A DNA stretch of 58,321 nt from an uncultured Candidatus Saccharibacteria bacterium (GTDB lineage Bacteria > Patescibacteriota > Minisyncoccia > Phycocordibacterales > DATDWN01). The number at the start of each line of letters is the position of its first letter. Position 1 is the stretch's first letter. Where the stretch lies: the NCBI GenBank assembly GCA_964596875.1, contig CAZQVT010000003.1, forward strand, positions 1 through 58,321, written 5' to 3'. This document shows, in pieces, positions 3,420 through 48,040 of this stretch. The notes below the pieces were generated by a model that was not told the origin of the DNA, made no database searches, and saw only the letters and a program-made list of their open reading frames with translations. The position numbers were made by a program, and so were the translations under genes.

Positions 3420-5911
<2,492 letters not shown>

Positions 5912-5912
5912 A

Positions 5913-12166: not shown

Positions 12167-12559
12167 TTATTTTTTCTTATTTTTATAAATTGATAAAACC
12201 TTATCCACAACTTCTGAAGGAATCATTGTAGCTTTTATTATATAACCATCTACACCTATTGCTTTTGCCTTGTCTTCATCATCGGCTTGGTTTGTAAGCA
12301 TTATTACAACTGCCTTTGGCAATAACTTCTCTTCGCGAATTTTTTTAAGAAGTTCTAAACCATCCATACCAGGCATGATTATGTCCATTAAAACCATATC
12401 GTAGTCAGAATTTGCTTTTATTTTTTCTAAAGCAGAAATCCCATTCGAAGCAGTGTCGATTTCTAAACCTGACTTTTTAAACTTCAAAAGATACATATCC
12501 AAAAGGAACTTGTCATCATCCACCAAAAGTATTTTTAAGTTTTTTTGAGTTTCAGTCAT
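12167..12559 (-). CDS. Stand-alone CheY-like receiver domain protein
   Basis: 130 aa. LLVDDD acidic pocket, phospho-acceptor context VLMDIIMPGMDG, MLTN, conserved Lys in IIKA. Abuts pilT with no gap. Confidence 0.9.
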   Translation of the reverse strand: MTETQKNLKILLVDDDKFLLDMYLLKFKKSGLEIDTASNGISALEKIKANSDYDMVLMDIIMPGMDGLELLKKIREEKLLPKAVVIMLTNQADDEDKAKAIGVDGYIIKATMIPSEVVDKVLSIYKNKKK

Positions 12560-14665: not shown

Positions 14666-15223
14666 TTATCTTAGTGAATATGTATTAGCTTCTAAAGCAA
14701 ACTCCATTACTCCCGCCTGACCAGTTTTAGAAAGTGGTCCTGGAATTATGTTTAAACTAACTACATCTATCAAACTTAAACTGTACTCCACATCTTCCAA
14801 AAAATTCAAAAACTGGTCGTAATTTCCAGAAAGATGCATTGTTACACCGGTAGTTTTGTGAGAGCCAATGTGGCTTGCACCTGTAACATCTTGATTGTTA
14901 GGATCATTTTCAGAAAGTTTAAAATCTTTAATTACAACCCCATATCTTTCACCTACAACACTCAAGTTGTTCAACATTGAAATAGCATCTATTTTTTCAG
15001 GAATTATTTTATTTAGTCTTTCAATTTCATCCGGTGAAATACTATTGTATTCAGCCAAAACAGCCTCTCTTTTTTCTTTTATTTCTTTTACCTTACTTAA
15101 AACTTTAGTGAATTCTGCTTTTTCAGCAGTTTTCATCTTAATCTCAACAGTAAGTGGCTTAATGTACATAAAATACATTCCTACACAGATTGCTATTACA
15201 GTTATGGATAAGATTGATTTCAT
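14666..15223 (-). CDS. pilO: PilO-like pilus alignment protein
   Basis: 185 aa. N-terminal TM, then a coiled-coil-like segment and an alpha/beta core. Follows the pilN-like gene with a 1-nt gap. Confidence 0.5.
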   Translation of the reverse strand: MKSILSITVIAICVGMYFMYIKPLTVEIKMKTAEKAEFTKVLSKVKEIKEKREAVLAEYNSISPDEIERLNKIIPEKIDAISMLNNLSVVGERYGVVIKDFKLSENDPNNQDVTGASHIGSHKTTGVTMHLSGNYDQFLNFLEDVEYSLSLIDVVSLNIIPGPLSKTGQAGVMEFALEANTYSLR

Positions 15224-15224: not shown

Positions 15225-15827
15225 TTATTGGTTTACGCTTAAGGAATCTATTGCTTTTCTATATGACAACAAATTTGAGTCTATATTGGAAGTAAATTGA
15301 AATTTAATACTACCCACAGCATCCAAACCTATGTTAGAAAAAGTTGGGTTTTTAACATACTCACTTTCAGTAAATATTTGTTGTTGTCTTGCTAGTGCAT
15401 TGTAAGACTGAACCTCGCCATTTATTTTAATAGTTGGAGAACCAGTTTTGTTTGAATAAACCAGATCGTTAAATTTTAATTTTTTAACCGATAATTCTCC
15501 CAACAAAAGAAGCATTCTTGAGTTTACGAGATGTTTTTCGAGTAAGTTTGAGGCAGTGTCTATTCTAGAATTTGCATCTAGAAGTTCTTTTATTTTATCT
15601 GGAAGAATTGCAGACCTAGCATCTTCCAACTGTTTATTTGCTTCTGCTATTTGCTTTACAATTAAGTTTTTATAAAAATACAGTCCCCCGTACAAAAGTG
15701 CGGTAACAATAAAAACTATAGTCGCTGCGAGTGTAAAAATATCTGTGTCGTGAACCACATTTACCTTTTCTACCTCACCTGCCACCGGTTTTTTGGGAAT
15801 AAAAGAAGTTTGAAAATTAGGCTGCAT
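15225..15827 (-). CDS. pilN: PilN-like pilus alignment protein
   Basis: 200 aa. Short cytoplasmic N-terminus (SFIPKKP), single TM, coiled-coil segment. Directly downstream of pilM. Confidence 0.5.
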   Translation of the reverse strand: MQPNFQTSFIPKKPVAGEVEKVNVVHDTDIFTLAATIVFIVTALLYGGLYFYKNLIVKQIAEANKQLEDARSAILPDKIKELLDANSRIDTASNLLEKHLVNSRMLLLLGELSVKKLKFNDLVYSNKTGSPTIKINGEVQSYNALARQQQIFTESEYVKNPTFSNIGLDAVGSIKFQFTSNIDSNLLSYRKAIDSLSVNQ

Positions 15828-15884
15828 ACTAAAACAATTATAGTATATGAAAAAATAAAAAACTATATAAACTGTGTATAAAAA

Positions 15885-17015
15885 CTAACCAATTTCCTGC
15901 AATCGTCGCAATGCAACTCCAACAGCCACAGCAAACTCTGGACCTGTTTCTTTTAGTATTTGTTCTAGAAACGCAGGTGCTACAACTTTTGAAAATGGAT
16001 CTCCGGCTATAACATCTGTTTCCAAAATATCCTTAGCAAAAGGCGCAACACCCTTTAAAGCACTGCCGCCACCAACTAAAAGCACCTTACTAACGTCTCT
16101 TTTGTATTTCTTTTGATAAGAGAGAATAAATCTGTCCGCTTCTGAAAAGATGTAATTTAGTGTAAATGACGCTACATTTTTTAGAGCAATACCGTTTATT
16201 TCTCCTAGCAACCCCTTGTCTCTCTTTAGGTATTCTGCGTCACTAAGCGATATTCCCAAAGCCTTTGAAAGCTCGTTGGTTATATCGTATGAACCTCTTT
16301 CTATCATGTGTGAGGCTCTCAGTATTCCCTTTTCTACCATATACAGTTTTGTACTTGATGCCCCCATATCAACGACTAAAACTGGTTTCACTTCATCATC
16401 TAGGGTTGAACGCATTGTGCTGAAAATTTCTATCTCGAAAAAACCAACGTCCAAACCGGTTTTTGTAATAATATTTTTATATTTATTTAAAGTGTCATTG
16501 TGCAAAGCAACAATAAGCACTTCTAGTTGTGGTTTCGGCTTTTCTACTCCAGGAGCCACCTCCTCCTCTACTTGTCCTGGATTTTTCTCTTGAGGGATAA
16601 CATACCAATCCAAAGTTACTTCAGATATCGGCACTGGAACATATTTTCTTGCTTCGATAGGCACCATATTGTCCAAGTCCTTTTTAGGAACTTCCGGTAG
16701 GTTTATAACGGCCATAAGACTGGATGAAAAAGGAATAGCGACTCCACAAGACATTGTGGTAATGTTCACCTCTTTTTCTTTTAGCATGTCATTTATTGCC
16801 TCGATAATCTTTTCTTGTGGAAGACTGACTGATTCACCAACACCCTTTCCGGTGTATGGACCCAAAGCCAGTTCGCCATAAGTTTCAAGCACCGCATGAC
16901 CATTTTTGCGAGTTATTTGAACTATCTTTATAGAAGAAGAACCTATATCAATACCTAGAACACTTTGGCTCTTTTTATTGAACAAATCAGTAAATTTGGA
17001 TAGAAAATCTGCCAT
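15885..17015 (-). CDS. pilM: Actin-like ATPase PilM
   Basis: 376 aa. LGIDIGSSSIKIV and VVDMGASSTK phosphate motifs of the FtsA/PilM fold. First gene of the locus. Confidence 0.85.
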   Translation of the reverse strand: MADFLSKFTDLFNKKSQSVLGIDIGSSSIKIVQITRKNGHAVLETYGELALGPYTGKGVGESVSLPQEKIIEAINDMLKEKEVNITTMSCGVAIPFSSSLMAVINLPEVPKKDLDNMVPIEARKYVPVPISEVTLDWYVIPQEKNPGQVEEEVAPGVEKPKPQLEVLIVALHNDTLNKYKNIITKTGLDVGFFEIEIFSTMRSTLDDEVKPVLVVDMGASSTKLYMVEKGILRASHMIERGSYDITNELSKALGISLSDAEYLKRDKGLLGEINGIALKNVASFTLNYIFSEADRFILSYQKKYKRDVSKVLLVGGGSALKGVAPFAKDILETDVIAGDPFSKVVAPAFLEQILKETGPEFAVAVGVALRRLQEIG

Positions 17016-17067
17016 AAATATATATGGATAATTGTAACATAAGGAGTATTATATTGATAAGCACAAA

Positions 17068-17724
17068 ATGTTAGAAACAATAAAAAACTTAATTTCCAAA
17101 GTCTTTGACTTTGTTCTACCACCAAGATCTGACTACGAGATAGTTTTGAGACTTACCGAAGACGATATTGTTTCCCTACCCAAAAGTAGCAGAGTGTTGG
17201 ATGCAGACTGGATAACACCTTTATTTCAATATAAAGACAAAAAAGTTAAAGCGATAATATGGGAACTTAAATACAAGGAAAATACAAAACCCTTGGATAC
17301 TTTAGGTAAACTATTTTATGATGAAATATTAAATATTATTTCTGACATAGTAATTTTCAACAAAAACGCACAGTTCCTTTTAATACCCGTACCGATGACC
17401 GAAAAAGCCAGAATTCAAAGAGGTTACAACCAGAGCGAACTCATTGCTAAATCAATTTTGGAAAATGATACCCAAAGAATGCTGGTTTACGCCCCACAAT
17501 GGTTTAAAAAAACAAAAGACACTCCAAAACAAAGTCACAGTGACACAAAAGAAGAAAGAATGAAAAATTTAGAGAATTGTTTCGAAGCAAATCCAAACGT
17601 CGAAGGTAAATATGTTTTTCTTATAGACGATGTCGTGACGACTGGAAGCACACTACGAGAAGCAAAAAAGACTCTGGCAAGTTCCGATGCAGAAGATGTT
17701 TACGGATTTACTATTGCACACTAA
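17068..17724 (+). CDS. comF: ComF-family phosphoribosyltransferase-fold competence protein
   Basis: 218 aa. C-terminal PRTase motif VFLIDDVVTTGSTL. Divergent from pilM. Confidence 0.8.
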   Translation: MLETIKNLISKVFDFVLPPRSDYEIVLRLTEDDIVSLPKSSRVLDADWITPLFQYKDKKVKAIIWELKYKENTKPLDTLGKLFYDEILNIISDIVIFNKNAQFLLIPVPMTEKARIQRGYNQSELIAKSILENDTQRMLVYAPQWFKKTKDTPKQSHSDTKEERMKNLENCFEANPNVEGKYVFLIDDVVTTGSTLREAKKTLASSDAEDVYGFTIAH

Positions 17725-17727
17725 ATG

Positions 17728-17817
17728 CGGAGCCGGATGGATTCGAACCATCGGTACCTTATTAAAGGGTACACCTCTTTAGCAAAGAGGCACGTTAGAC
17801 CACTCTGACACGGCTCC
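17728..17817 (-). tRNA. tRNA-Ser(GCU)
   Basis: Hand-folded cloverleaf: acceptor GGAGCCG/CGGCTCC, anticodon stem CCTCT/AGAGG with loop TTGCTAA, long variable arm, T-arm GATGG-TTCGAAT-CCATC, discriminator G. Confidence 0.9.
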
Positions 17818-17880
17818 AATAAGCCACAGATTATCATATTTAGAGCATTTTATAAAATATGTTATATTGTCTTCTGTAAA

Positions 17881-17967
17881 GGATAGGTGGATGAGTGGCT
17901 TAAATCAACGGTTTACTAAACCGTCGTAGGGTAAAACCTACCGAGAGTTCGAATCTCTCCCTATCCG
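17881..17967 (+). tRNA. Class II (Ser-type) tRNA with anticodon loop UUACUAA, read as tRNA-Ser(ACU)
   Basis: Acceptor GGATAGG/CCTATCC, D-arm GAT..ATC, anticodon stem ACGGT/ACCGT with 7-nt loop TTACTAA, long variable arm CGTAGGGTAAAACCTACC, T-arm GAGAG-TTCGAAT-CTCTC, discriminator G. Confidence 0.8.
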
Positions 17968-17973
17968 CAATAA

Positions 17974-18006
17974 ACAAAAACCACCCTCTCGGGTGATTTT
18001 TGTTTA
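17974..18006. terminator. Bidirectional intrinsic terminator
   Basis: AAAAACCACCC-TCTC-GGGTGATTTTT between the convergent tRNA (+) and the 1347-aa gene (-). Confidence 0.6.
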
Positions 18007-18009
18007 TTG

Positions 18010-21000
18010 CTAATTCTGTCCTGCGACTCTTTCTTGTAGATACTTGATAATCAGATATATGTTTGCGATGTTCTTTCTGTAATCATCATCTGTCATTGCT
18101 ACTGTAGATTTAGTTAGATAGTTTGCTGCAACCCAACCATCTACTCCTGAAGCAAAGTTTACTTTCCACCAAGTTAGACTATTTGCGTATCCTGGACCCG
18201 AAGTGATAGTTCCTGTCTTACCTGTTCTTTGTGAACCAAGGTATCTACCTCCAGCACTACTTCTAACTGAAACTGTTGTAGTCGTTTTAACTTTGTCTCC
18301 TACTTTTAATGAAGTTGGTGGAGGTGGTGTAGGTGAAGAGTTACTTACTGTTACAGAACGAGAGTCTGAAGTAGTTTGATTTCCCTCTACATCTCTTGCT
18401 GTTGCTGTAACTTTATGTGATCCGTTACTTGCAGCGAGTGTATTCCATGATATTGAATATGGGGCAGTCGTATCTTCCGGAAGAAGATTTACTCCATCAA
18501 GTTTAAACTGTACTCCTACAACTCCCTTGTCATCTTCTGCATTTGCTGAAACTATAACAGTATTTGAAACTGTAGAACCAGATGTCGGAGAAGTAAGAGA
18601 AACTGTTGGTGGAACAATTGTGACTACATCATTTTGAACCCTTACAACAACAACTCCTGACTCTTGCAAGTTACCTGTTAGGTCTCTAGCAACTGCTGTA
18701 ACAGAGTGACTACCGTTTGAAACTGAACTAGTATTCCAACTTATAGAATAAGGTTCAACATTGTCTTCTGAAAGAATGCTTACCCCATCCACTTTAAACT
18801 GAACACCAGCAACTCCTACGTCATCAGAGGCTTCTGCAGACAAACTTATAGTAGAATTTGCTTCAGAATTATATTCTGGTGATGTGACATTTACTGTAGG
18901 CTTTGTTGTATCACCCACATCCGGAACTGAAATAGTTACCGTAACACTAGATGAAGTTTGTGTGTTACCTGCAGCATCTCTTGCAACTGCTGTTAGCGTA
19001 TGAGGCCCTTCCGACGCATTTGTTGTATCCCAGATAGTTGAGTATGCAGAAGTTGTGTCTTCTGTGTTTAGGTTTGCACCATCTAGTTTAAACTGTACTC
19101 CTACAACTCCAACATTATCTGTAGCATCTGCTGAAACTAGTATTGGAACTCCCTTAATAGCAGTGTAAGAAGAAGGTGCTGTAAGTGTAACTGTTGGTTT
19201 TGTAGTATCTGTTGTTCCGCCAGATGACTGAGTTTCATCTGCACCAACATCATATGCAGAGCCTAATGGTCTTGTTTGGTTATCAAAGTCATTTGTAACT
19301 GAAACTGCAACGCCCTTATCTATTGCACTTGTTGCTCCCGAAGTTAGGTGTAGATCCCCTGTTGTTGGAGAAACAAACATAGATGAAACTGCATTTATAA
19401 CATTGTTACCAAGTGTTGCTGTCGCACCATCTCGTGCCGTTATGAGTCCATCAATTAGGTTGTTCTTTATATCAACTCCAGTTGTTCTAGAAAATCTGTA
19501 CTCAACTGAATTTGGATACATTCCTGAACTTATGATTGTGTTGTTGTAAACTTTTGTACTTGGTGAATCAAACACAGCAACTGGAACATCGAAGAATGAT
19601 TGTCCGCTCGCTCTGTAGATAAAATTGTTTGCGATAACACCTCGAGCGTGGTCAGTTAGAGTTCCGTTACTTACGGGTGCTTGAGCTGTTTTAGTGTTAT
19701 CTAGACCCAAACTTATATCTCGATGGTTGTTTATAAATGTATTTCTTTCAACAATTGTGTCACTACTACCATTCCAGAAAAGAACTGCTGGACCAACTAA
19801 ACCACTGTTTGATCTAAAGTTTTTAAATGTGTTACCTCTAACTACCCAGTTTTTACCGTAGTGAACATCTAGACCGTTAGTGTAAGTGTCAGAAGCATAA
19901 GTTGTGTATTCAAGTATTGAGTTTTCCAAAATACCATTATCAACTCCCTGGCCATTGGTTGGATTGTTCTTTATAAACTGATCACCTATATCAGTTATTC
20001 GAAGATTTCGGAAAGTTGGATTATCTACTCCACTGTTTGCGATAATACCGTGTTGAGAAATATTTCTAATAGTCATATCAGAAATAGTTACCCCCTTAAC
20101 ATTATCCATCCAAAAACCGAAGTTAATATTTCCAGTCATTCCATTTCCCTGAACAATTGTTGTGTCTCTTCCAGAACCTTTTATAGTTACATTTGAAATG
20201 TTTTGTGGAAGATAAAGTGCATCTGTAAGGTTGTATGTACCGTTTGCAAGAACTATAGTTTGGTTTGAAGTAAGGTTTGCTACAGCAGTTTTTAGTTGAT
20301 CTATTGTAGAAACATTTACTGTTCCACCTGTAGTACTACTTGGGTTTACAACTACAGAGTCACTCGCAGTTCCTCCTGCACCTGTACAACTAACTACAAA
20401 TGTTCTACCTGCCTCGATAGCAGATGTTGTTTGTGTTCCCGTAAGTCCAGAATATGCACCAGGGTTTACAGAACAACTTGTAGCATTTGTTGAAGTCCAA
20501 GTAAGTGAAACTCCGCTTGTTGCAGGGACAGAGATAGGGCCATCTGAACCGTTTGCTTTTATATCTGCTGTTGGAGATTGAACAGTAACTGAATTTACAG
20601 TTACAGACACACTGTCACTCGCAGTTCCTCCTGCACCAGTACATGACAATGTATATGTTGTACTTGATGTCGGAGTCACTGATTGTGTTCCACTAGTTCC
20701 TGAAAGTCCTCCAGTTAATGTACAACTTGTAGCGTTTGTAGAAGACCATGACAGTGTTATCGCAGTTTTAGAATTTATAGTTACAGGCAAATCACTTCCG
20801 TTTACTTTCAAGTCTGCTGTAGGTTGCTGTGTAGTTGGTGCAGTTCCAACATTAACTTGGTATACATGAATATCTCTACCGATCGCCATATAAAACTTTT
20901 TAGTTGCTGGGTCATATGTGGCACTAGTAATAGAAGGAGCTGAACCTGAGTTGTTTATATCTGAAAGTTTCCAGGTTGCATAAGGTCGCAAATCCCAAGG

Positions 21001-22053
21001 GTTTTTTATTCCATTTTTAACAGCCAAAAGATCATTTGCATCATATGCCCAAACTTGATGAATGTATGGCCAACCGTGTGTACCCTTACTTAGACTTGTA
21101 GGGTCATAACAGTATATGACTTGACCATTCCATCCAGGCACTGGTTGTCTGTCTAGGGCAGGGTCAGTAGTTCCCTCTCCATAACAAAATGTAGTTGCAT
21201 GTCTACCCACAAACAGAACTGTTCTAGTTCCCGCAGGAAATGCTGCGCCGCCCAACTGATCTGCTCCTGAAAACAACGTATTAGCCTGAGAATATCCTCC
21301 AAGAGTTTGGTATTCACCAGGATAGCCAACAAGCAATTTAGTTGCAGCAGAACTAACTCCAAGTTGGTCTGGGTCAAAAACAGTAAGTGAAGGACCAAAA
21401 CTTGTTCTACCGATAATTGGTATTCCCATTTGACCTGTAAATGCAGGTGCTCCAAGCAAACTTCTCCACTCTGCAGGCACTATGCCCATATATCCTGATT
21501 GCATTCCAACTCTATCCGTTGGAGAAGAATTCGATCCAGTCAATGCACCAACTCTAAAAGGCCCGGCTTGTGAAGTCATGTTAGGAGTCATGGTAAAATG
21601 CGAACCCACAGCAGTACCACCAGCATCATAGTAAGGATACATTGTTACAATAAGTTTATTATTCCAAACCAAAGTACCTCCTGGATTGAAACCATTAACA
21701 TCTCCAGGATTAACAGCCAACTTATTTGTTACTGCAGTACATGGCATTTGCACCGTACCAGTTCCTCCAATAGCAGGAATACTTACTCTTGCTATCATGT
21801 CATACCAGTCATGACATCCGAAATAAATAGATTGACCATCTGCACCCATACCTAGTCCAAAAGATCCGTAATCAAGGCTGTTGTTCGCATTGTCATATGC
21901 AGGTACGGTAAATTTACCCAAATAAACCATATCTGCTTGTTGAACTAGAGGTTGTGTTGTCGGGGAAACAGTTTGAGCTACTGCAAATGCTGGACTTACA
22001 ATAGATGCTAATAATGAAAACAAGGTTGATAAGGCTATTAAGGTTTTTTTCAT
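18010..22053 (-). CDS. Large secreted multidomain surface protein
   Basis: 1347 aa. N-terminal signal peptide (MKKTLIALSTLFSLLASIVSPAFAVAQ). Two ~85-aa repeats with SW(S/T)STNATSC. PbH1-like beta-helix turns (ISDMTIRN, NSILEY, VVRGNTFKN, VERNTFINN, IANNFIY, VYNNTII). Three ~95-aa repeats (TKPTV...DDVGVxGVQFKxDG...). C-terminal WWKVNFASGVDGWVAANYL. The N-terminal ~400 aa is unassigned. Confidence 0.85.
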   Translation of the reverse strand: MKKTLIALSTLFSLLASIVSPAFAVAQTVSPTTQPLVQQADMVYLGKFTVPAYDNANNSLDYGSFGLGMGADGQSIYFGCHDWYDMIARVSIPAIGGTGTVQMPCTAVTNKLAVNPGDVNGFNPGGTLVWNNKLIVTMYPYYDAGGTAVGSHFTMTPNMTSQAGPFRVGALTGSNSSPTDRVGMQSGYMGIVPAEWRSLLGAPAFTGQMGIPIIGRTSFGPSLTVFDPDQLGVSSAATKLLVGYPGEYQTLGGYSQANTLFSGADQLGGAAFPAGTRTVLFVGRHATTFCYGEGTTDPALDRQPVPGWNGQVIYCYDPTSLSKGTHGWPYIHQVWAYDANDLLAVKNGIKNPWDLRPYATWKLSDINNSGSAPSITSATYDPATKKFYMAIGRDIHVYQVNVGTAPTTQQPTADLKVNGSDLPVTINSKTAITLSWSSTNATSCTLTGGLSGTSGTQSVTPTSSTTYTLSCTGAGGTASDSVSVTVNSVTVQSPTADIKANGSDGPISVPATSGVSLTWTSTNATSCSVNPGAYSGLTGTQTTSAIEAGRTFVVSCTGAGGTASDSVVVNPSSTTGGTVNVSTIDQLKTAVANLTSNQTIVLANGTYNLTDALYLPQNISNVTIKGSGRDTTIVQGNGMTGNINFGFWMDNVKGVTISDMTIRNISQHGIIANSGVDNPTFRNLRITDIGDQFIKNNPTNGQGVDNGILENSILEYTTYASDTYTNGLDVHYGKNWVVRGNTFKNFRSNSGLVGPAVLFWNGSSDTIVERNTFINNHRDISLGLDNTKTAQAPVSNGTLTDHARGVIANNFIYRASGQSFFDVPVAVFDSPSTKVYNNTIISSGMYPNSVEYRFSRTTGVDIKNNLIDGLITARDGATATLGNNVINAVSSMFVSPTTGDLHLTSGATSAIDKGVAVSVTNDFDNQTRPLGSAYDVGADETQSSGGTTDTTKPTVTLTAPSSYTAIKGVPILVSADATDNVGVVGVQFKLDGANLNTEDTTSAYSTIWDTTNASEGPHTLTAVARDAAGNTQTSSSVTVTISVPDVGDTTKPTVNVTSPEYNSEANSTISLSAEASDDVGVAGVQFKVDGVSILSEDNVEPYSISWNTSSVSNGSHSVTAVARDLTGNLQESGVVVVRVQNDVVTIVPPTVSLTSPTSGSTVSNTVIVSANAEDDKGVVGVQFKLDGVNLLPEDTTAPYSISWNTLAASNGSHKVTATARDVEGNQTTSDSRSVTVSNSSPTPPPPTSLKVGDKVKTTTTVSVRSSAGGRYLGSQRTGKTGTITSGPGYANSLTWWKVNFASGVDGWVAANYLTKSTVAMTDDDYRKNIANIYLIIKYLQERVAGQN

Positions 22054-22153: not shown

Positions 22154-23314
22154 ATGGACTACAACAAAATTTCACTACAAAAACACAAGAAACTAAAAGG
22201 TAAACTTGGCATTCATTCAAAAATACCTATAAAAAATAGAAATGACTTGTCTGTTGCCTATACACCTGGTGTAGCAGAAGTTTCGAGAGTTTTAGCAAAA
22301 AATAAAAACCTCGCAAAGGACCTGACCTTAAAGTCTAACTCTGTTGCAGTTATTTCAGACGGTTCAGCAGTACTTGGGCTTGGCAATATTGGACCATACG
22401 GAGCACTCCCTGTTATGGAAGGCAAAGCTATACTTTTCAAAGAGTTCGGAGGTGTTGAAGCTTACCCTATATGTCTAGATACCCAGGACATAGAAGAAAT
22501 AATTAAAACAATAAAAAACATCTCGGTTGGTTTTGGTGGTATAAACCTAGAAGACATTTCTGCACCAAGATGTTTTGAAATAGAAGAACGACTAAAAAAT
22601 GAACTTGATATTCCAGTAATGCACGATGACCAACATGGCACAGCGATTGTTGTTTTGTCTGCACTTATAAATGCTCTGAAGGTTGTAAAGAAAGAAAAAG
22701 AAAATGTAAAACTTGTTGTAAACGGCGCTGGCTCTGCAGCAATTGCGATCACTAAGTTACTTATTGCTTACGGTTTCAATGCCAAAAAATTAATAATGGT
22801 AGATAGCAAAGGCAGTATTCACAAAAAAAGAACTGATCTAAACAAATACAAAGGACAGATCGCGGAGCTGACAAATGCAGAAATGAAGGATGGAGGTTTA
22901 AAAGAAGCACTAGTTGATGCAGATATCTTTGTCGGAGTGTCAGTTGCAGATGTTTTAAAACCTGAGTGGGTAGAAACTATGGCAAAAGATCCGATAGTTA
23001 TTGCAATGGCAAATCCAAATCCTGAAATAAGTTTTACAAATGCAAAAAAAACAAAAATCAAAGTTTTTGGCACTGGAAGAAGTGACCTCCCTAACCAAAT
23101 AAACAATGTTTTGGTTTTTCCTGGTATCTTTCGAGGTGCACTAGATAGTGGGGCAAAACAAATCACCGAAGAAATGAAACTCGCTAGCGCAAAAGCAATA
23201 GCAAACCTTGTTTCCAAAAAAGAACTTTCTGCTAACTATATAATCCCCAATCCTTTCGATAAACGTGTCGCAAAAGCAGTCGCAAATGCGGTAAAAAAGG
23301 CAACTAAAAAGTAA
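22154..23314 (+). CDS. NAD(P)-dependent malic enzyme (short form)
   Basis: 386 aa. AYTPGVA, GTAIVVLSALINALK and dinucleotide fold VVNGAGSAAIA, typical of bacterial malic enzymes lacking the PTA domain. Confidence 0.9.
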   Translation: MDYNKISLQKHKKLKGKLGIHSKIPIKNRNDLSVAYTPGVAEVSRVLAKNKNLAKDLTLKSNSVAVISDGSAVLGLGNIGPYGALPVMEGKAILFKEFGGVEAYPICLDTQDIEEIIKTIKNISVGFGGINLEDISAPRCFEIEERLKNELDIPVMHDDQHGTAIVVLSALINALKVVKKEKENVKLVVNGAGSAAIAITKLLIAYGFNAKKLIMVDSKGSIHKKRTDLNKYKGQIAELTNAEMKDGGLKEALVDADIFVGVSVADVLKPEWVETMAKDPIVIAMANPNPEISFTNAKKTKIKVFGTGRSDLPNQINNVLVFPGIFRGALDSGAKQITEEMKLASAKAIANLVSKKELSANYIIPNPFDKRVAKAVANAVKKATKK

Positions 23315-23385: not shown

Positions 23386-23405
23386 CCTCCTTATGGAGGC
23401 TTTTT
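23386..23405 (+). terminator. Weak intrinsic terminator after the malic enzyme gene
   Basis: CCTCC-TTAT-GGAGG followed by CTTTTT. Ends 8 nt before the next ATG. Confidence 0.45.
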
Positions 23406-23412
23406 CATTTAC

Positions 23413-24645
23413 ATGGCAACTACCAAGGAAAAATTTGAAAGACTAACCGAAGAAATCAAAAATGGCGGTGATATTTCTATTATCAACCTTATGGAGTGTC
23501 TGGTTGAAAAAGCTCACAAAACTAGAGTTTCTGACATTCACATAGACCCAACTCCTGAAAGTGTTCGGGTTCGTTTTCGTATAGACGGAGTTCTACAAGA
23601 AGCCTACGACTTCCCTAAAACTATCCATAATGAAATTATCTCCAGAATAAAGGTTTTATCAAAACTTCGCACCGACGAACACCAGACGACCCAGGACGGA
23701 CGTTTTCGATACGAATTCCCCGACTCAAAAGAATTCGTAGATCTTAGAGTATCTATAGTCCCAACATATCACGGTGAAAACTGTGTAATGCGACTTTTGT
23801 CTGACAAGGCAGAACATTACAGTTTGGATAGTTTAGGTTTTAGCCCGGAGGACCAAAAGAAAATTCTAACTGCCATGAAAAAACCAAACGGCATGATACT
23901 TTCTACAGGTCCTACTGGCTCAGGAAAAACTACAACTCTTTACACACTTATTAAAATGCTAAACTCTCCTGAAGTTTCGATAGTTACTATTGAAGACCCT
24001 ATCGAATATGCAGTAGAAGATATAGAACAAATCCAAGTAAATGCAAAAAGCGGACTAACATTTGCAAATGGACTTAGAAGTATTTTGCGACAGGACCCAA
24101 ATATTATTATGGTGGGAGAAATAAGAGACAGCGAAACTGCAACTATCGCAGTAAACACTGCCCTAACTGGTCACCTACTTCTTTCCACTCTACACACCAA
24201 CGACGCCGCGACAACTCTTCCGAGACTTTTGGATATGGGCATAGAGGAGTACCTTGTTGCATCTACTGTAAGTATTGCAATAGGACAAAGACTAGTTAGA
24301 AAAATATGCGAAGAATGTAAACAGAAAGTGGAAATGACCGAAGCTTTGAAAACAAGTCTGCAAGATAGTCCTTTTGCAAAACTCACAAAAGATACTGACG
24401 AGTTCTGGAAAGGCGCTGGTTGTAAAAAATGTGGCAAGAGTGGTTTTTCTGGAAGAATCTCTATAAACGAGATCCTGGTCGCGGATGAAAAAATAAAAGA
24501 AGCTATACTAAAAAAAGTATCTGCTTCTGAAATAAAAAGAATTGCTGTAGAAAATGGAATGACAACAATACTAGAAGACGGATATAAAAAAGTAGTTTCG
24601 GGACTTACAACACTCGAGGAAATACTTAGAGTTGTACACGAATAA
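23413..24645 (+). CDS. Second GspE/PilB-family secretion ATPase (short, no N-terminal MshEN domain)
   Basis: 410 aa. Walker A GPTGSGKTT, IIMVGEIRD, TGHLLLSTLHT, complete tetracysteine motif CEECKQK...CKKCGKSG. Confidence 0.9.
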   Translation: MATTKEKFERLTEEIKNGGDISIINLMECLVEKAHKTRVSDIHIDPTPESVRVRFRIDGVLQEAYDFPKTIHNEIISRIKVLSKLRTDEHQTTQDGRFRYEFPDSKEFVDLRVSIVPTYHGENCVMRLLSDKAEHYSLDSLGFSPEDQKKILTAMKKPNGMILSTGPTGSGKTTTLYTLIKMLNSPEVSIVTIEDPIEYAVEDIEQIQVNAKSGLTFANGLRSILRQDPNIIMVGEIRDSETATIAVNTALTGHLLLSTLHTNDAATTLPRLLDMGIEEYLVASTVSIAIGQRLVRKICEECKQKVEMTEALKTSLQDSPFAKLTKDTDEFWKGAGCKKCGKSGFSGRISINEILVADEKIKEAILKKVSASEIKRIAVENGMTTILEDGYKKVVSGLTTLEEILRVVHE

Positions 24646-24646
24646 T

Positions 24647-25807
24647 ATGAAAAAATACATCGATAAATTTTCTAAATCTTTAAAAGATTTAAATAAAAAA
24701 TACAGTAAAAAAACAAGTAAAAATTCAAAGGTTTTTGCATACTTCAAAAATTCTACCTATTCAAGAATGTCTACAAAAGACCAGACATTCTTTGTAAAAA
24801 GACTTTCATTTTTGATCAAAGCAGGTATACCAGTTTTGGACAGTCTACAGATGATAAAAGACCAGACAAAAAAGAAAAGTTATGCAAAAGTTCTAGACAA
24901 AATAATCGCTGATGTTGCAAACGGTCAAAACCTTTCCAACAGTCTCGCAAAGTTCCCAAGCATGTTTAGTGAGTTTTCTATAAATATTATTAGTTTCGGT
25001 GAGTCGAGTGGAATACTTTCTGAAAACCTAGACTACTTAGCAGACGAACTCAAAAAGAAAAACGCACTTAGAAAAAAAGTTGTGGGTGCATTTGTTTACC
25101 CTATCGTAGTAACTGTAGCAACTTTTGGGATTACAGGTTTTCTTATGGTCTATCTTTTCCCTAAAATAATGCCAGTTTTTCAAAGTCTGCACATGAAACT
25201 TCCGGTTTCAACTAGAATAGTAATATTTTTAAGTAACTTTATTAGATTTAATAGTTTATATATTTTCCTAGGTCTTGCACTCTTCATATCAGGTTTTATA
25301 TATCTAATGAAAAAAAGTTTACTCTTTAGATACTATTTTGATAAATCAATTCTTAAAATACCGGCTATAGGAAACATTGTTCGAGATTACAATCTCGCAA
25401 ACTCTACCAGAACAATAGGCCTACTACTAAAAGGTGGCGTCACAGTTAGTGAAGCGATCCCTATAGCAGAAAAAACTAGTAGCAACCTTATATACAAGCA
25501 GGAATTCAAAAGGCTTACAGAAAACGCAAACCGTGGAGAGAAAATTTCGGTCTATCTTGGATCTAGACCTGACTTGTTTCCAGAAATTTTATCCCAGATA
25601 GTTTCTGTTGGAGAAAGAAGTGGAAACCTTTCAAACTCCCTAATATATCTTTCTGAACTATACGAAACTCAAGTTGACGACTTCACGAAAAACTTGGGAA
25701 ACCTTATCGAACCAGCACTTATGATTTTCATGGGAATTCTAGTAGGTTTTATTGCCATATCTATAATCACTCCTATATATAGTATTACCCAAAACCTACA
25801 TGGATAG
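24647..25807 (+). CDS. Second GspF/PilC-family platform protein
   Basis: Start taken at the ATG (MKKYIDKF) 1 nt after the ATPase stop; the track's 24632 start is TTG. T2SF-like repeats and 3 hydrophobic blocks. Confidence 0.85.
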   Translation: MKKYIDKFSKSLKDLNKKYSKKTSKNSKVFAYFKNSTYSRMSTKDQTFFVKRLSFLIKAGIPVLDSLQMIKDQTKKKSYAKVLDKIIADVANGQNLSNSLAKFPSMFSEFSINIISFGESSGILSENLDYLADELKKKNALRKKVVGAFVYPIVVTVATFGITGFLMVYLFPKIMPVFQSLHMKLPVSTRIVIFLSNFIRFNSLYIFLGLALFISGFIYLMKKSLLFRYYFDKSILKIPAIGNIVRDYNLANSTRTIGLLLKGGVTVSEAIPIAEKTSSNLIYKQEFKRLTENANRGEKISVYLGSRPDLFPEILSQIVSVGERSGNLSNSLIYLSELYETQVDDFTKNLGNLIEPALMIFMGILVGFIAISIITPIYSITQNLHG

Positions 25808-26270
25808 TTTAAAGTTCAAAAAAAATAATGGCTTTACTCTAATAGAAGTTTTGATAACTCTAGGAATACTGGCAATAGTTGGCACAACATTTTCGATAAT
25901 TGATATAAACAATTTTAGAGGAGACTCTTTCAGATCTGAAGTAAGCACTATTGGCACTGCGCTTCAAACCGCCAGAGCAAACTCGTTTAACAATATTAAC
26001 CAGAAAAAACACGGTGTGGCATTTAACCCGAGTGGCATAAATGGATACGTAATATTTGAGGGGAATTCTTATGCTGACAGAGATACAACAAAAGACGTAG
26101 TCATAAACCCCACATACACTGTTGTGTTTGCTGTATCTGCACCAACAGAAATTACTTTTGACCAACTTAGTGGCAATGCAAACTATAACGGCAATATTGT
26201 TTTAACCGACCCACAAAGAGGCGTTACCGCAATAATACAAACAAACAATGAAGGCAAAATCTCTTGGTAA
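25800..26270 (+). CDS. Pseudopilin (prepilin-type N-terminus; GspH/FimT-like size)
   Basis: KKNNG/FTLIEVLITLGILAIVG. Start ATG overlaps the upstream stop (ATGGATAG). Confidence 0.75.
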   Translation: MDSLKFKKNNGFTLIEVLITLGILAIVGTTFSIIDINNFRGDSFRSEVSTIGTALQTARANSFNNINQKKHGVAFNPSGINGYVIFEGNSYADRDTTKDVVINPTYTVVFAVSAPTEITFDQLSGNANYNGNIVLTDPQRGVTAIIQTNNEGKISW

Positions 26271-27786
26271 AAAACAAGGTTTTTCTACTTTGGAATTAAT
26301 GATTGCTTTGGCGCTCATTTCGATTGTCTTAGTTGGTGCCATAGGCGGAAACTTTATTGCACAATACTGGTCTTTGGTAAGTCAGACATCAAATGAGGGT
26401 TTATACAAAACGAAAACAAAACTAGAAGACCTGCGATCCCTTATAAAACAGGATTTTTACAGTGCTGTTTCTAGTGCCCCCATAGCATCTGTTGACCCAA
26501 CTGACCCAGCAGATGCCTCATGTATAAACGGAGGTCTTTGTTATTTTATAGAGAGCAATATAACCGACATATCTTCTTGCTCGAAGTTTGTCGAATCAAA
26601 AGTAAAGTGGCAAGTTCAAAACTATCCCGAAACCACGACTTCCCTTTTCACAAACCTAACTAACTCACAAGAAATTATAAATCGTGGTGGTGACTGTCTT
26701 TTGGATGTGCCAAACGGCAACTGGGAAACAAACAACCCAGCTAGTGTTGGACTACAAACTTACACCGGAGGAAAGCAGTTTACCAGCGTAGATGTTCTAC
26801 ACAAAAAAATATATGCGACAACAAACACCTTTCCCTCTTTTTTAATCTTTGATGAACCAAGTACAGTTGGAAACAATCCAACTTTAGTAAGTAGTTATGA
26901 TTTAAAACTCAATTCTTTTTCTCTAAAAATAAATGCCGTTGATGTAGAAGAGGATCTAAGTACCGGAAGGAAATATGCTTTTGTTGCAGTGGCGACCACC
27001 ACAAAACAACTTGCAGTTTTTGATATCACCGACAGCAGTTCCCCAGACTTGAAAGCGCAGATAACTCTACAAAACGTAGACCAGTTTGGTTCATACCCAG
27101 AAGGATATCGTCTGTATGTTTACGGACAAAGGCTTTACATAACCGTCCGAGAAACAACCGGAAATGAGTTTCATATTTTTGATATCAGCACACCAACATT
27201 GCCCACAGAAATTGGTAATGGTTTTGAATTAAACAGAACTGTAAATGACCTAGTTGTGAGAGATCAAAAAATAAATGGCGCCACAAAAAGACTTGTGTTT
27301 CTCGCTTCAGATTCAAACGTAAAAGAGCTTGGAGTTTTGGATGTTACCGGAGATGCGATATCTGAAATTGCCTCAGTTGACCTACCTGGAATATATGACG
27401 GTCTTTCACTAAACCTATTAGGTAGAAATTTGTATTTTGGAAGACAGAGTAATCCATCTGGACCAGAGTTGTTTGTATTTGATATTACAAACCCAAGTGT
27501 TTCCCTACCAATAAAAAATTCTGGCGAAGCGGGTACAAATATTACCTCAATAAAAGTTTCTGGAAAATATGCGTTTATTGGCACAAATAAAGTCGGTGAA
27601 GAATTTCAGGTATGGGATAGTGAGTTTTCAAACTGGAGTGCAACAACTGCGAACGTAGGTAGATTTAAATTTTACTCTTTCACAAATCTTGCACCGCTTG
27701 GTTTTGATATAGATAGCAACTGGATCTATGCAGTAAGTAACCAGAATACGACAGACAAACTGCAAGTCTTATACACGACACCGTAA
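26248..27786 (+). CDS. Large pseudopilin with C-terminal LVIVD-like beta-propeller
   Basis: 512 aa. KKQG/FSTLELMIALALISIVL, followed by repeated blades QLAVFDITDSSSP, EFHIFDISTPTLP, ELGVLDVTGD, ELFVFDITNPS, EEFQVWDSEF. Confidence 0.75.
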   Translation: MKAKSLGKKQGFSTLELMIALALISIVLVGAIGGNFIAQYWSLVSQTSNEGLYKTKTKLEDLRSLIKQDFYSAVSSAPIASVDPTDPADASCINGGLCYFIESNITDISSCSKFVESKVKWQVQNYPETTTSLFTNLTNSQEIINRGGDCLLDVPNGNWETNNPASVGLQTYTGGKQFTSVDVLHKKIYATTNTFPSFLIFDEPSTVGNNPTLVSSYDLKLNSFSLKINAVDVEEDLSTGRKYAFVAVATTTKQLAVFDITDSSSPDLKAQITLQNVDQFGSYPEGYRLYVYGQRLYITVRETTGNEFHIFDISTPTLPTEIGNGFELNRTVNDLVVRDQKINGATKRLVFLASDSNVKELGVLDVTGDAISEIASVDLPGIYDGLSLNLLGRNLYFGRQSNPSGPELFVFDITNPSVSLPIKNSGEAGTNITSIKVSGKYAFIGTNKVGEEFQVWDSEFSNWSATTANVGRFKFYSFTNLAPLGFDIDSNWIYAVSNQNTTDKLQVLYTTP

Positions 27787-28259
27787 TGAAAAATATAAAT
27801 ACTAAAAAAGGGTTTACTTTGGTAGAAACAATGATATATATTGCCTTATTTGGCATTGTTATTTATGGCGCTTTTGTTGGTGCGTATAATCTTTTAGAAG
27901 GAGGAAAAAGAAATATAAACACTGCCAAAATTGAAGAAGAAGGAACTTTTATAAATAGAAAAATAAACTGGGCATTAACAGGAGCAACAAATGTTACTGT
28001 AACTTCTGGGGGAACAAAAATAACAATTACCAGACCTGATTTAGGACCACAGAGTCCCCTTGTCATTTCAGAAACTGGCAGCAACATGACTATCACTCGT
28101 GGCACTGGTAGTGAAACAGAGTTAAACAATGACCGATTCCACATAAGCGGAACTCAGTTTGTTTACACAGCCGGTGCAGGAGGTAGACCCCCATCAATCT
28201 CTGCAACATTCAAGGTTGAGGAAAAGGTATTTAGTTTCAGAAATTACCTGAGACAATAG
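27786..28259 (+). CDS. Pseudopilin (prepilin-type N-terminus)
   Basis: TKKG/FTLVETMIYIALFGIV. Start overlaps the upstream stop (TAATG). 157 aa. Confidence 0.75.
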   Translation: MKNINTKKGFTLVETMIYIALFGIVIYGAFVGAYNLLEGGKRNINTAKIEEEGTFINRKINWALTGATNVTVTSGGTKITITRPDLGPQSPLVISETGSNMTITRGTGSETELNNDRFHISGTQFVYTAGAGGRPPSISATFKVEEKVFSFRNYLRQ

Positions 28260-28321: not shown

Positions 28322-28900
28322 ATGGCAATGCTAGATTACAGTGAAATAACAGAGCGAAAATACATCGTTTTCAATGGTGAACCATGGGAAGTACTATCTT
28401 CACACGTTTTCCGAAAGCAACAGAGAAAACCTGTTAACGCAACAAAACTTAAAAACCTTATAACTGGAAAAGTTACAGAGCAATCTTTCCATGTTTCTGA
28501 AAAGGTAGAAGAGGCAGAAATAGACTCAAAAGAAGCAAAATACCTATACAACAACAAAGGTGAATACTGGTTCTGTGACCCTAGTAACCCGGCTGATAGA
28601 TTTTCATTAAGTGACGACCTTATGGGACCTAGAGGAAAGTTTCTAAAAGTTAACACTATTATCGAAGTTCTATCTTTTGAGGAGACTACAATAGGGGTAA
28701 AAATGCCTATTAAAGTAGAGCTAAAAGTAGTTGAGGCTCATCCAGCAGTTAAAGGAAACACTGCCCAAGGAGGCACAAAAACAGTGAAACTAGAGACAGG
28801 TGCAGAGATACAGGTTCCTATGTTTATAAAGGAAGGTGAAATAGTGAGAGTAAACTCTGAAACTGGTGAATATACAGAACGAGCCGTCGCCGGGTTCTAG
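28322..28900 (+). CDS. efp: Elongation factor P
   Basis: 192 aa. GEPWEV..., three-domain EF-P pattern, C-terminal GEIVRVNSETGEYTERA. The loop that normally reads KPGKG reads RKQQRKP. Confidence 0.9.
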   Translation: MAMLDYSEITERKYIVFNGEPWEVLSSHVFRKQQRKPVNATKLKNLITGKVTEQSFHVSEKVEEAEIDSKEAKYLYNNKGEYWFCDPSNPADRFSLSDDLMGPRGKFLKVNTIIEVLSFEETTIGVKMPIKVELKVVEAHPAVKGNTAQGGTKTVKLETGAEIQVPMFIKEGEIVRVNSETGEYTERAVAGF

Positions 28901-28941
28901 ATAAGAAAAAAGCCTCCAATGGAGGCTTTTTTCTTATCTAG
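28897..28941. terminator. Bidirectional intrinsic terminator (21-bp perfect palindrome)
   Basis: CTAGATAAGAAAAAAGCCTCC-AAT-GGAGGCTTTTTTCTTATCTAG, overlapping the efp stop. Confidence 0.7.
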
Positions 28942-28975
28942 AACTACCCATGATTTTTTATGATAAAATCAAAGT

Positions 28976-29383
28976 ATGGACACAGTATCTAAGATAAAAT
29001 CCTTGAACTTACCTTTCGGTAAATATATGGTATTTGGTAGCGCGGTAATGGAACTGCATAACATAAGAAAAGCAAAAGATATTGATCTTTTAATAAATGA
29101 GGAATTATATAAAGAACTTAGAAAAAATGGATGGAGTAGAAAATGGAACTTTAAAAGAGTCCTGACATGCAAGGCAGTAAAAAAAGATAGCGTTGAAGCT
29201 TTCACAAACTTAAAGTGGAAAAACTATCAGTTTGAAACTGAGGACTTAATTAGAAATGCGGAAAATATAAATGGAGTTCCGTTTATGAAGTTAGAAGATT
29301 ATTTAGAATATAAAAAACACCTGCCAAGGGAAAAAGATAAAAATGATGTTATCTTAATGCAAAATTTTTTGAAAACCCAATAA
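28976..29383 (+). CDS. Small protein with minimal nucleotidyltransferase-like motif
   Basis: 135 aa. FGSAVMELHNIRKAKDIDLL fits the G[SG]-x(9-13)-D-x-D pattern of pol-beta-fold NTases. No other support. Confidence 0.5.
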   Translation: MDTVSKIKSLNLPFGKYMVFGSAVMELHNIRKAKDIDLLINEELYKELRKNGWSRKWNFKRVLTCKAVKKDSVEAFTNLKWKNYQFETEDLIRNAENINGVPFMKLEDYLEYKKHLPREKDKNDVILMQNFLKTQ

Positions 29384-41456: not shown

Positions 41457-41477
41457 AATATTCCTCAATATTAATTT

Positions 41478-45022: not shown

Positions 45023-45095
45023 ACCCTATATGATAGTTTAAACCGGATAAAAAACAAACATTGCTAGCCCCCTATTTCCGGGCTATAATCTTGTT

Positions 45096-46007: not shown

Positions 46008-46012
46008 AAATT

Positions 46013-46492: not shown

Positions 46493-46501
46493 ATTCTTTG
46501 T

Positions 46502-46529
46502 TTGACAACTTTATATAAAAAATTATAAC
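46502..46529 (+). promoter_or_regulatory. Sigma-70-like promoter candidate upstream of the GC-rich gene
   Basis: TTGACA (46502-46507), 16-nt spacer, TATAAC (46524-46529). GGGAGG RBS at 46552-46557. Confidence 0.35.
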
Positions 46530-46564
46530 CTCATATCGGAACCAGACTGCTGGGAGGCAAACCC

Positions 46565-47149: not shown

Positions 47150-47173
47150 CCGTCCGGCGACTGGAATATGACT

Positions 47174-48038: not shown

Positions 48039-48040
48039 AT

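Follow-up and report, generated by a model that had tools for sequence, protein, structure and literature searches.

Why should a bacterium that encodes a complete type IV pilus keep, only ~6 kb away, a second set of filament genes that lacks a prepilin peptidase, PilMNO and a retraction ATPase of its own? The question is raised by a contig of 58,321 nucleotides (CAZQVT010000003.1 of GenBank assembly GCA_964596875.1; hereafter the window) from an uncultured bacterium of the Candidate Phyla Radiation (CPR), deposited as a Candidatus Saccharibacteria bacterium. The second set, termed module 2, comprises five + strand open reading frames (ORFs) at 23413-28259, which encode an extension ATPase (ATPase-2), a platform protein (platform-2) and three prepilins (pA, pB and pC). 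The other set, locus 1, lies on the minus strand and is a complete type IVa-like set (Table 1). The reading that we prefer, with a probability of roughly 60%, is that module 2 is a reduced second type IV pilus (T4P) that displays pB at its tip for adhesion to a partner cell or a surface, relies on the PilD peptidase of locus 1, and draws its shaft and cap subunits from elsewhere. What we infer in this reading is that PilD is needed, that pB sits at the tip and is adhesive, and where the shaft pilin comes from.

The five genes of module 2 are translationally coupled, and inspection of the ORFs and their junctions reproduced exactly the coordinates and couplings given in an initial annotation of this DNA. 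The stop codon of ATPase-2 (TAA, 24643-24645) is separated by a single T at 24646 from the ATG of platform-2 at 24647, which leaves a 1-nt gap; an alternative in-frame TTG start for platform-2 at 24632 would overlap the ATPase-2 ORF. The platform-2/pA junction is ATGGATAG at 25800-25807, pA and pB overlap by 23 nt (26248-26270), and pB and pC meet at the sequence TAATG (27784-27788). Dozens of independent genomes have these genes in the same order, and therefore the arrangement is not a product of chance. Pfam searches located no PilD, PilM, PilN, PilO or PilT inside module 2, as had been claimed, and no PilT is present in the corresponding modules of relatives either.

ATPase-2 matches the Pfam T2SSE model over residues 20-406 (E 2e-122) and retains the Walker A (GPTGSGKTT at 166), Asp box, Walker B and His box motifs. 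It has no MshEN/N1 domain, and its tetracysteine zinc motif is complete (CEEC at 299-302 and CKKC at 337-340), whereas the locus-1 enzyme, PilB1, retains two of the four cysteines (C461 and C508). Both properties had been noted in the initial annotation. Among NCBIfam models, the best score is obtained with GspE (TIGR02533; 498 bits against a cut-off of 630, with the alignment starting at model position 103), followed by PilB (475 against 676) and, far lower, ComGA (NF041000; 263 against 300), a model on which PilB1 scores 269. A sequence search of the PDB returned Thermus PilF (343 bits), Myxococcus PilB (338 bits) and Vibrio EpsE (322-329 bits). More than 8000 homologs of ATPase-2 are present in the database; the top 120 are all ~405-425 aa in length with 70-88% identity, and the named members of this group are Nomurabacteria, Parcubacteria, Paceibacterota or Minisyncoccia. 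The window is accordingly assigned to an ultrasmall, Parcubacteria-type CPR bacterium. Platform-2 carries T2SSF (PF00482) in two stretches (4e-53) and likewise scores below the NCBIfam cut-offs, with 282 bits against 424 for GspF (TIGR02120) and 157 against 240 for ComGB (NF041012).

The remaining three proteins have short leaders (9-11 aa), all with Gly at position -1, Phe at +1 and Glu at +5, and the prepilin N-termini reported for them (G/FTLIE, G/FSTLE and G/FTLVE in pA, pB and pC, respectively) are confirmed. Scores for the Pfam N_methyl model, whose cut-off is 21.2 bits, are 33.5 bits for pA, 30.1 bits for pC and 20.1 bits for pB, the last being 1 bit below the cut-off with its G/FSTLE motif intact. 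A profile built from 23 orthologs matches pA at 5.8e-42, and a profile from 19 orthologs matches pC with the same value. In addition, pA weakly resembles GspH (Pfam, E 0.008) and ComGD (NCBIfam, E 1.7e-6, below the cut-off). The AlphaFold2 model of pC (mean predicted local distance difference test score, pLDDT, of 90.2) contains a helix at residues 12-64 followed by an eight-stranded beta domain, a classic lollipop fold. A Foldseek search of the PDB with this model gave no match with E <0.1, and hence pC is not assigned to the GspI/J or PilV/W classes.

The most distinctive component is pB, which combines a prepilin N-terminus with LVIVD repeats (Pfam, 2e-11). Its AlphaFold2 model, built from 76 homologs, is of high confidence (pLDDT 93.1; predicted template modelling score 0.88) and consists of an alpha1 helix at residues 14-68, a four-stranded pilin head at 76-138, and 28 strands that form a seven-bladed beta-propeller at 165-509. 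Four cysteines (Cys 92, 98, 111 and 150), located within the head or immediately behind it, are kept in at least 91% of homologs, which suggests that they form two disulfides. Sequence varies most in the propeller (47% mean identity versus 57% for the helix), and blades 3-5 are its most conserved part. All 123 homologous proteins are ~500 aa in length and are found only in CPR; they derive from uncultured metagenome sources and metagenome-assembled genomes (MAGs), and the few that are named belong to Patescibacteria or Minisyncoccia. On the basis of the modelled fold, pB would be the tip adhesin of the system.

The organization of related loci indicates what module 2 contains and what it lacks. 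We surveyed 80 species-level loci around ATPase homologs (labelled L001 and so on), taking the taxonomy of relatives from named RIFCS/CG MAG labels only; TPA_asm MAG labels such as "uncultured Candidatus Saccharibacteria" or "Gammaproteobacteria" were set aside as unreliable. A recurrent operon encodes, in order, a short ATPase, a platform protein, pA (~150 aa), pB (~470-550 aa, with an LVIVD propeller), pC (~160 aa), pD and pE. The pD protein (~130 aa, "GF(V/I)AL...") has no Glu5 and is of the cap type, and pE (~150-170 aa) is a canonical major pilin beginning "GGFTLIEILVVIGIIAILA...". Among the 18 short-ATPase loci with at least 5.5 kb of downstream sequence, pA was identified in 16, pB in 16, pC in 12, pD in 14 and pE in 15, and all five pilins were present in 11 by strict BLAST criteria. 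In 16 of 18 informative loci, the pilin genes of the module start with pA. Named lineages with the seven-gene operon include Sung-, Kaiser-, Colwell-, Doudna- and Nomurabacteria. Module 2 thus corresponds to the first five genes of a seven-gene operon that is widely conserved in Parcubacteria. Its pA, pB and pC are 31%, 26% and 36-47% identical, respectively, to the L003/L001 orthologs, with profile E values of ~1e-42, and the divergence of the pilins is much more rapid than that of the motor (26-36% identity to the L003 proteins, as opposed to 72%), in line with an adhesive role.

No pD or pE gene accompanies module 2. Searches of the 58-kb window with tblastn and profile hidden Markov models matched only the pilins of locus 1. 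Because pD and pE of the seven-gene form are absent from module 2, its three pilins are all of the minor, or tip, type. The description of them as pseudopilins is amended accordingly: the shaft and cap subunits are lacking locally, so module 2 would have to borrow more than PilD or source these subunits elsewhere in the genome. The borrowing of PilD itself, proposed in the initial annotation, fits the gene content: the only A24 peptidase gene of the window is in locus 1, which would accordingly be the source of the enzyme that processes pA, pB and pC. None of 34 short-ATPase relatives has a PilD gene within 10 kb, and hence dependence on a PilD encoded elsewhere is general.

The five-gene form is not peculiar to this contig. 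In L090, whose ATPase is 86% identical, the same five genes run straight into efp. Other loci of the clade are smaller still, with L008 retaining pA as its only pilin and L005 retaining the ATPase and platform genes with no adjacent pilins; these cases suggest that pilin genes are dispersing or being lost in the window's clade. In comparison with L090, all five genes have a pN much lower than their pS, and the ratios of nonsynonymous to synonymous substitution rates (dN/dS) are ~0.04-0.11, similar to the 0.08 of the adjacent malic enzyme gene, although dS is saturated (~2) and the values are rough. Module 2 is under purifying selection and is being maintained rather than decaying.

Minor-pilin positions of this system repeatedly bear adhesin-type modules. 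In L019, the pD slot (15235-18270) is occupied by a 1011-aa protein with a pD-like N-terminus and a VWA domain, and the same slot in L092 (15163-20115) holds a 1650-aa protein with SpaA_2 and VWA domains. In addition, L021 encodes a 588-aa prepilin with Ig-like domains.

Module 2 is not a recent copy of locus 1. ATPase-2 is 42% identical to PilB1 versus 70-72% to the L001/L003 orthologs and up to 88% to its closest homologs, and platform-2 is 27% identical to PilC1 of locus 1 versus 59-61% to the L001/L003 orthologs. We constructed a neighbour-joining tree of ATPases (86 taxa, 382 core columns, PilT as outgroup, 200 bootstraps) in which the GspE references, sought via tblastn of plasmids, were the E. 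coli pO157 GspE and the K-12 HofB; a Deinococcus match was left out. The Parcubacteria PilB1 lineage was separated in 200 of 200 replicates, and the short-ATPase clade that includes ATPase-2 was recovered in 167 of 200. Together, the identities and the PilB1 split exclude a recent duplication of locus 1, as the initial annotation had anticipated, and module 2 is an ancient paralog of it. Profiles of pA and pC match the locus-1 minor pilins at 7083-7661 (1e-7) and 6506-7078 (1e-13), respectively, and the pD profile weakly matches the one at 5453-5968 (7e-5); the locus-1 minor pilins are distant paralogs of the module 2 set, and a four-minor-pilin core has therefore been kept by both systems.

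How the short ATPase arose is indicated by its more distant relatives. Homologs with 55% identity or less are mostly ~575 aa in length; their extra N-terminus is an MshEN domain, and they reside in clusters with a genuine PilM (PilM_2). In many of these long-ATPase loci, PilM is followed by three small genes encoding proteins of ~175, 180 and 110 aa. The lineages concerned include Magasanik-, Buchanan-, Falkow- and Kerfeldbacteria. Some loci are intermediate, encoding a long ATPase, a platform protein, pA, a large pilin, a pC-like pilin, pD, PilM and pE; L044 is the clearest example, and L039 and L038 are similar. The large pilin of L044 is an LVIVD-propeller pB (N_methyl plus four LVIVD repeats, 8e-39), and that of L039 is a 988-aa prepilin. 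The Magasanikbacteria-type cluster of L044 also carries five tandem pE-type pilin genes after PilM (16239-18929, + strand; 157-172 aa), an array that may reflect pilin variation.

In the ATPase tree, the short clade joins the PilM-linked intermediates in 185 of 200 replicates, which suggests that the short ATPases are a derived clade nested among long, MshEN-bearing and PilM-linked CPR ATPases. PilM is linked to 0 of 29 short ATPases versus 21 of 35 long ones (Fisher 6.5e-8, not phylogenetically corrected), and therefore the ATPase N-domain and PilM would have been lost together in the Parcubacteria branch. The N-domain of PilB and GspE contacts PilM and GspL, and a joint loss fits this interaction. 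Since the short ATPase is nested among pilus ATPases of this kind, the minimal layout of module 2, which resembles that of ComG, appears to have arisen by reduction and to be convergent. A receiver domain was gained and fused to the N-terminus of the ATPase in two loci of the short clade, one recognized with Pfam (L021, 9506-11179) and one that looks alike by sequence (L025, 9464-11173). Separate receiver-domain genes also recur with CPR pilus ATPases, including those located directly upstream of long ATPase-2-like genes in L039 (773-1159) and L044 (9095-9469).

Module 2 and the window together provide the extension ATPase, the platform protein with duplicated T2SSF, the class III pilins and the PilD that mark the type IV filament superfamily; a major (shaft) pilin of its own is missing from module 2. 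The MshEN-bearing PilB and the PilMNO proteins of canonical type IVa pili are found in locus 1 and are absent from module 2. Among known systems, the closest parallel is in Nanosynbacter lyticus TM7x, which makes two pili (Grossman et al. 2025, ISME J, PMC12206443). T4P-1 of that organism is thick and essential and drives twitching, and its locus is arranged pilMNO-pilB-pilT-pilC-pilins-pilD. T4P-2 is a thin pilus made from pilB2, pilC2, pilM2N2O2 and five pilins (one major and four minor), one of which, PilX2, bears a seven-bladed propeller. This pilus helps the cells to bind their host; it is not needed for twitching, and its mutants keep wild-type competence. The T4P-2 locus 2 has been reported only in Saccharibacteria clade G1 (PMC12206443). 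As in TM7x, module 2 is a second ATPase and platform pair beside a complete T4P-1 locus and has no PilT or PilD of its own; pB has seven blades, as does PilX2; and the relatives of module 2 encode one major and four minor pilins. By this analogy, module 2 is best read as a reduced counterpart to T4P-2, the pilus with which Saccharibacteria bind their host.

A parallel for the tip itself is found in type IVa pili. The minor-pilin/PilY1 tip complexes of Myxococcus and Pseudomonas and the modular pilins of Streptococcus sanguinis, such as PilB with its vWA domain, prime assembly and sit at the tip. With four minor pilins including a Glu5-less cap, and with a large putative adhesin built on a beta-propeller or vWA domain, the system represented by module 2 is comparable. 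In pB the propeller is joined directly to a pilin N-terminus, a design shared with the modular pilins of S. sanguinis; PilY1, by contrast, is not a pilin and is a protein of its own. Module 2 further differs from PilY1 systems in having no PilMNOPQ, and pB has neither sequence similarity to PilY1 nor a specific Foldseek match.

We propose that the pilus would operate as follows. The locus-1 PilD would cleave the class III leaders of pA, pB and pC, and these proteins, joined by a Glu5-less cap pilin, would form a priming and tip complex on the platform. The short ATPase, presumably as a hexamer, would drive the platform while a major pilin is added beneath the tip complex. The growing filament would be pushed through the monoderm envelope with the pB propeller at or near its tip, where it could mediate adhesion to a surface or a partner cell. 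Retraction, if these filaments retract at all, could be provided by the PilT of locus 1. The ancestor would have been a CPR pilus lineage with an MshEN-bearing ATPase and PilM in its cluster, both of which were lost together in the Parcubacteria branch. In this genome and in close relatives, pD and pE have also been lost or relocated, and their roles would be supplied by another locus or by locus-1 pilins.

Several points weigh against a second pilus with an adhesive pB tip. Module 2 contains neither a major pilin nor a cap pilin, and filament formation cannot be assumed from the window. The function is carried over from TM7x T4P-2 by analogy, and the TM7x genes were compared by locus tags and lengths only. 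TM7x PilB2 (592 aa) is accompanied by its own PilM2 (350 aa), PilN2 and PilO2, in contrast with the 410-aa ATPase-2 and its lack of MshEN and PilMNO, and PilX2 is built of RCC1 repeats with reportedly no predicted PilD signal, whereas pB has LVIVD repeats and a canonical G/F...E5 processing motif. A Foldseek search of the PDB with the pB model returned only generic eukaryotic WD40/EPTP seven-bladed propellers (TM ~0.6), which give no clue to a ligand. Finally, the ATPase tree is a neighbour-joining tree only, built without ComGA, MshE and Tad references, for which NCBIfam equivalog scores served as a proxy, and the counts in the PilM comparison are not phylogenetically independent.

The alternative that survives best, although we regard it as unlikely, is that module 2 encodes a ComG-like competence pseudopilus that captures DNA and hands it to ComEA/ComEC, either feeding a nucleotide-auxotrophic cell or enabling transformation. 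The initial annotation had compared the layout to ComG and to type II secretion systems (T2SSs), and the likeness is one of architecture only. As in comGA-GG, an N1-less ATPase and a platform are combined in the relatives of module 2 with exactly five pilins, one major and four minor; there is no PilMNO, dedicated PilT or secretin, and the peptidase is encoded elsewhere. The weak ComGD match of pA, the presence of a ComFC-like gene, SSB and RecO in the window, and the enrichment of competence genes in CPR (PMC11665869) are also consistent with DNA uptake. However, the ComGA, ComGB and ComGD scores are all below their cut-offs and no better than those of locus-1 paralogs, and ATPase-2 is nested among the MshEN- and PilM-linked CPR pilus ATPases. 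In the relatives' operon the major pilin is encoded last and not first, and neither the 350-residue propeller of pB nor the VWA and SpaA modules of relatives have a counterpart in ComG. Within the 58-kb window, module 2 shows no linkage to comEA or comEC, and no ComGC-like gene, comEA, comEC or dprA was identified. The ComFC-like gene is located where it had been reported, but it is no specific evidence for module 2: its divergent partner in the window, L005 and L090 is the locus-1 pilM, and other loci have no such gene near the module. Mutants of TM7x lacking T4P-2 retain wild-type competence (PMC12206443). Of the two roles suggested in the initial annotation, DNA uptake is thus disfavoured and attachment is the preferred candidate, in view of the propeller pilin, the VWA and SpaA modules found in relatives, and T4P-2 of TM7x as a precedent.

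Less probable than competence is a variant of the preferred reading, in which module 2 is a motor-plus-tip cassette that shares the shaft of locus 1, with a locus-1 major pilin placed beneath a pA-pB-pC tip such that two pili are built from one pool of pilins. This idea draws on the absence of pD and pE beside the module in both the window and L090, where the genes are nevertheless under purifying selection, and on the short distance to locus 1. Locus 1 encodes two tandem major-type pilins (150 and 154 aa) that are 40% identical with near-identical N-termini. The pE profile matches the first of these over model positions 4-117 of 160, or 70% of the model, and the last minor pilin weakly resembles pD. 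Use of the 9158-9610 pilin as the module 2 shaft is speculative. However, only 58 kb are visible here, and because TM7x T4P-2 machinery and pilin genes can sit at separate, distant loci, pD and pE may be located elsewhere. The lack of adjacent pilins in L005 likewise illustrates the dispersal of pilin genes in this clade.

We give a lower chance again to a T2SS-like secretion piston, in which a short pseudopilus of a monoderm cell would push folded exoproteins through the wall or S-layer. In its favour, the best-scoring NCBIfam models are GspE and GspF, the tetracysteine zinc motif of ATPase-2 is like that of EpsE, pA is weakly GspH-like, and large Sec-signal surface proteins are encoded divergently upstream of the module (1347 aa in the window, 1241 aa in L001, and 831 aa together with a CAP-domain protein in L003). 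Nevertheless, the GspE and GspF scores fall below the equivalog cut-offs and those for PilB/PilF are equivalent, and ATPase-2 has no GspL-binding N1 domain. No GspD secretin or GspC, GspL or GspM was found among the neighbours of module 2 and the larger window ORFs scanned, nor in the modules of relatives. The host lineage is also monoderm-like. The upstream surface protein is absent in L090 despite the same module, and neighbourhoods vary widely. Moreover, relatives encode pE, a T4a-type major pilin canonical for long pili, in five tandem copies in L044, and an external pilus fits this better than a pseudopilus. Finally, a decaying, truncated and non-functional remnant of the seven-gene module is very improbable, since the loss of two of seven genes here and the further erosion in L008 and L005 are set against five intact and coupled ORFs, complete catalytic motifs, dN/dS values like that of the malic enzyme gene, and the retention of the same five-gene layout in L090.

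Table 1. Module 2, locus 1 and flanking features (window positions; a slash separates each leader from the mature N-terminus).
Feature	Position	Strand	Remarks
Terminator-like hairpin and T-run (CCTCC-TTAT-GGAGG CTTTTT)	23386-23407 (hairpin 23386-23399)	+	ends 6 nt before ATPase-2 start
ATPase-2, 410 aa, PilB/GspE-type extension ATPase core (N2 domain and C-terminal ATPase domain)	23413-24645	+	Pfam T2SSE
Platform-2, 386 aa, GspF/PilC-type polytopic membrane protein	24647-25807 (or from TTG 24632)	+	two T2SSF domains
pA, minor prepilin, 156 aa, leader MDSLKFKKNNG/FTLIE	25800-26270	+	weakly GspH/FimU/ComGD-like
pB, modular prepilin, 512 aa, leader MKAKSLGKKQG/FSTLE	26248-27786	+	LVIVD and N-terminal prepilin motif
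pC, minor prepilin, 157 aa, leader MKNINTKKG/FTLVE	27786-28259	+	N_methyl, lollipop fold
Malic enzyme gene	22154-23314		upstream flank of module 2
Elongation factor P (EF-P) gene, efp	28322-28900		downstream flank of module 2
Four minor pilins of locus 1	5453-5968, 5913-6503, 6506-7078, 7083-7661	-	
PilD prepilin peptidase	7665-8510	-	Pfam A24_N_bact 7e-31, Peptidase_A24 2e-11; only A24 peptidase in window
Second tandem major-type pilin, 154 aa	8546-9010	-	pE profile match confined to N-terminal helix
Major-type pilin, 150 aa, candidate module 2 shaft subunit	9158-9610	-	pE profile E 5e-13
PilT retraction ATPase	11099-12166	-	NCBIfam pilT_fam 402.6 bits vs cut-off 319; only one in window
Receiver-domain protein	12167-12559	-	between PilB1 and PilT; conserved in L005 and L090
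PilB1 with MshEN	12590-14314	-	locus 1
PilO	14666-15223	-	PF04350 21.7 bits, just under 22-bit cut-off
PilN-like protein	15225-15827	-	no Pfam match; by position and BLAST conservation in relatives
PilM	15885-17015	-	locus 1
ComFC-like gene	17068-17724		divergently adjacent to pilM

The window has a GC content of ~36%, and outside of 22-29 kb nearly every gene is located on the minus strand. The hairpin preceding ATPase-2 probably terminates the malic enzyme transcript and sets the upstream boundary of module 2. No convincing sigma-70-like promoter follows it, and promoter-like sites number 12 versus 20.8 in shuffled sequences, although CPR promoters may differ. A riboswitch in the 98-nt leader was considered and rejected because predicted structure was not above that of shuffled sequences (z -0.62), and an Rfam scan of 21.9-29.6 kb gave nothing over the gathering threshold, with all sub-threshold matches falling on the hairpin after efp. 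This strong palindromic hairpin (28890-28984), directly 3' of efp, is matched on both strands (RmaA, 39.8 bits versus a gathering score of 57) and is probably a bidirectional terminator.

Other genes of the window are unusual in their own right. The 1347-aa Sec-signal protein (18010-22053, minus strand) contains a beta-helix and three Big_7 Ig domains and is encoded between the ComFC and tRNA genes and the malic enzyme gene. Its GC content is 0.39-0.41 versus 0.36, and it is absent at that position in L090; it is probably a variable adhesin gene that may have been acquired. ARAGORN predicts a tRNA-Ser with the unusual anticodon ACT at 17881-17968 (+), divergent from a tRNA-Ser(GCT) at 17727-17817 (-), and the former may be either an atypical tRNA or a false prediction. 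A 1143-aa class I aminoacyl-tRNA synthetase (38037-41468, minus strand) is IleRS-like (tRNA-synt_1 and Anticodon_1) and has a His_Phos_1 domain (6e-24) inserted at residues 501-670, between its catalytic halves. At ~45000-49300, genes for thymidylate synthase, a HIT-like protein, dCMP deaminase, a cytidylyltransferase and dihydrofolate reductase form a cluster with a local GC content of 0.42.

A second pilus in CPR was already known from TM7x; what is new here is a reduced form that is widely conserved in Parcubacteria. We found no description of the Parcubacteria short-ATPase module in the literature. The reference classification of type IV filaments does not mention CPR, and general CPR genomics papers list only PilB, PilC, PilM and PilO plus competence genes. 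In annotations, the genes concerned routinely receive the misleading labels GspE, GspF or "type II secretion".

Groundwater and sediments harbour Parcubacteria/Paceibacteria as one of their most abundant groups of uncultured bacteria, and module 2 offers a concrete and widely conserved candidate for how such cells might find and hold partners. The picture of two pili with two jobs, proven so far only in oral Saccharibacteria, would thereby be extended to a much larger part of CPR. The propeller domain of pB (residues 161-512) is a tractable reagent for binding and pull-down assays aimed at host identification. The joint disappearance of the ATPase N-domain and PilM across a whole lineage also offers comparative evidence for the way in which the alignment complex and PilB-type motors are coupled. 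We tentatively raise the further possibility, which we hold at well under even odds, that the short-ATPase, PilMNO-less module represents a distinct class of type IV filament, confined to Parcubacteria-type CPR and devoted to partner recognition, in which a minimal motor (an ATPase of N2 and C-terminal domains plus a platform) suffices for assembly and the tip adhesins (LVIVD propeller, VWA or SpaA/Ig) are swappable. In the clade of the window, the motor and tip cassette would have been separated from its own shaft and cap pilins and would make a second type of pilus out of the locus-1 pilin pool. If this is true, the joint loss of MshEN and PilM would be a natural experiment, indicating that a pilus can be extended in a monoderm envelope without their interaction.

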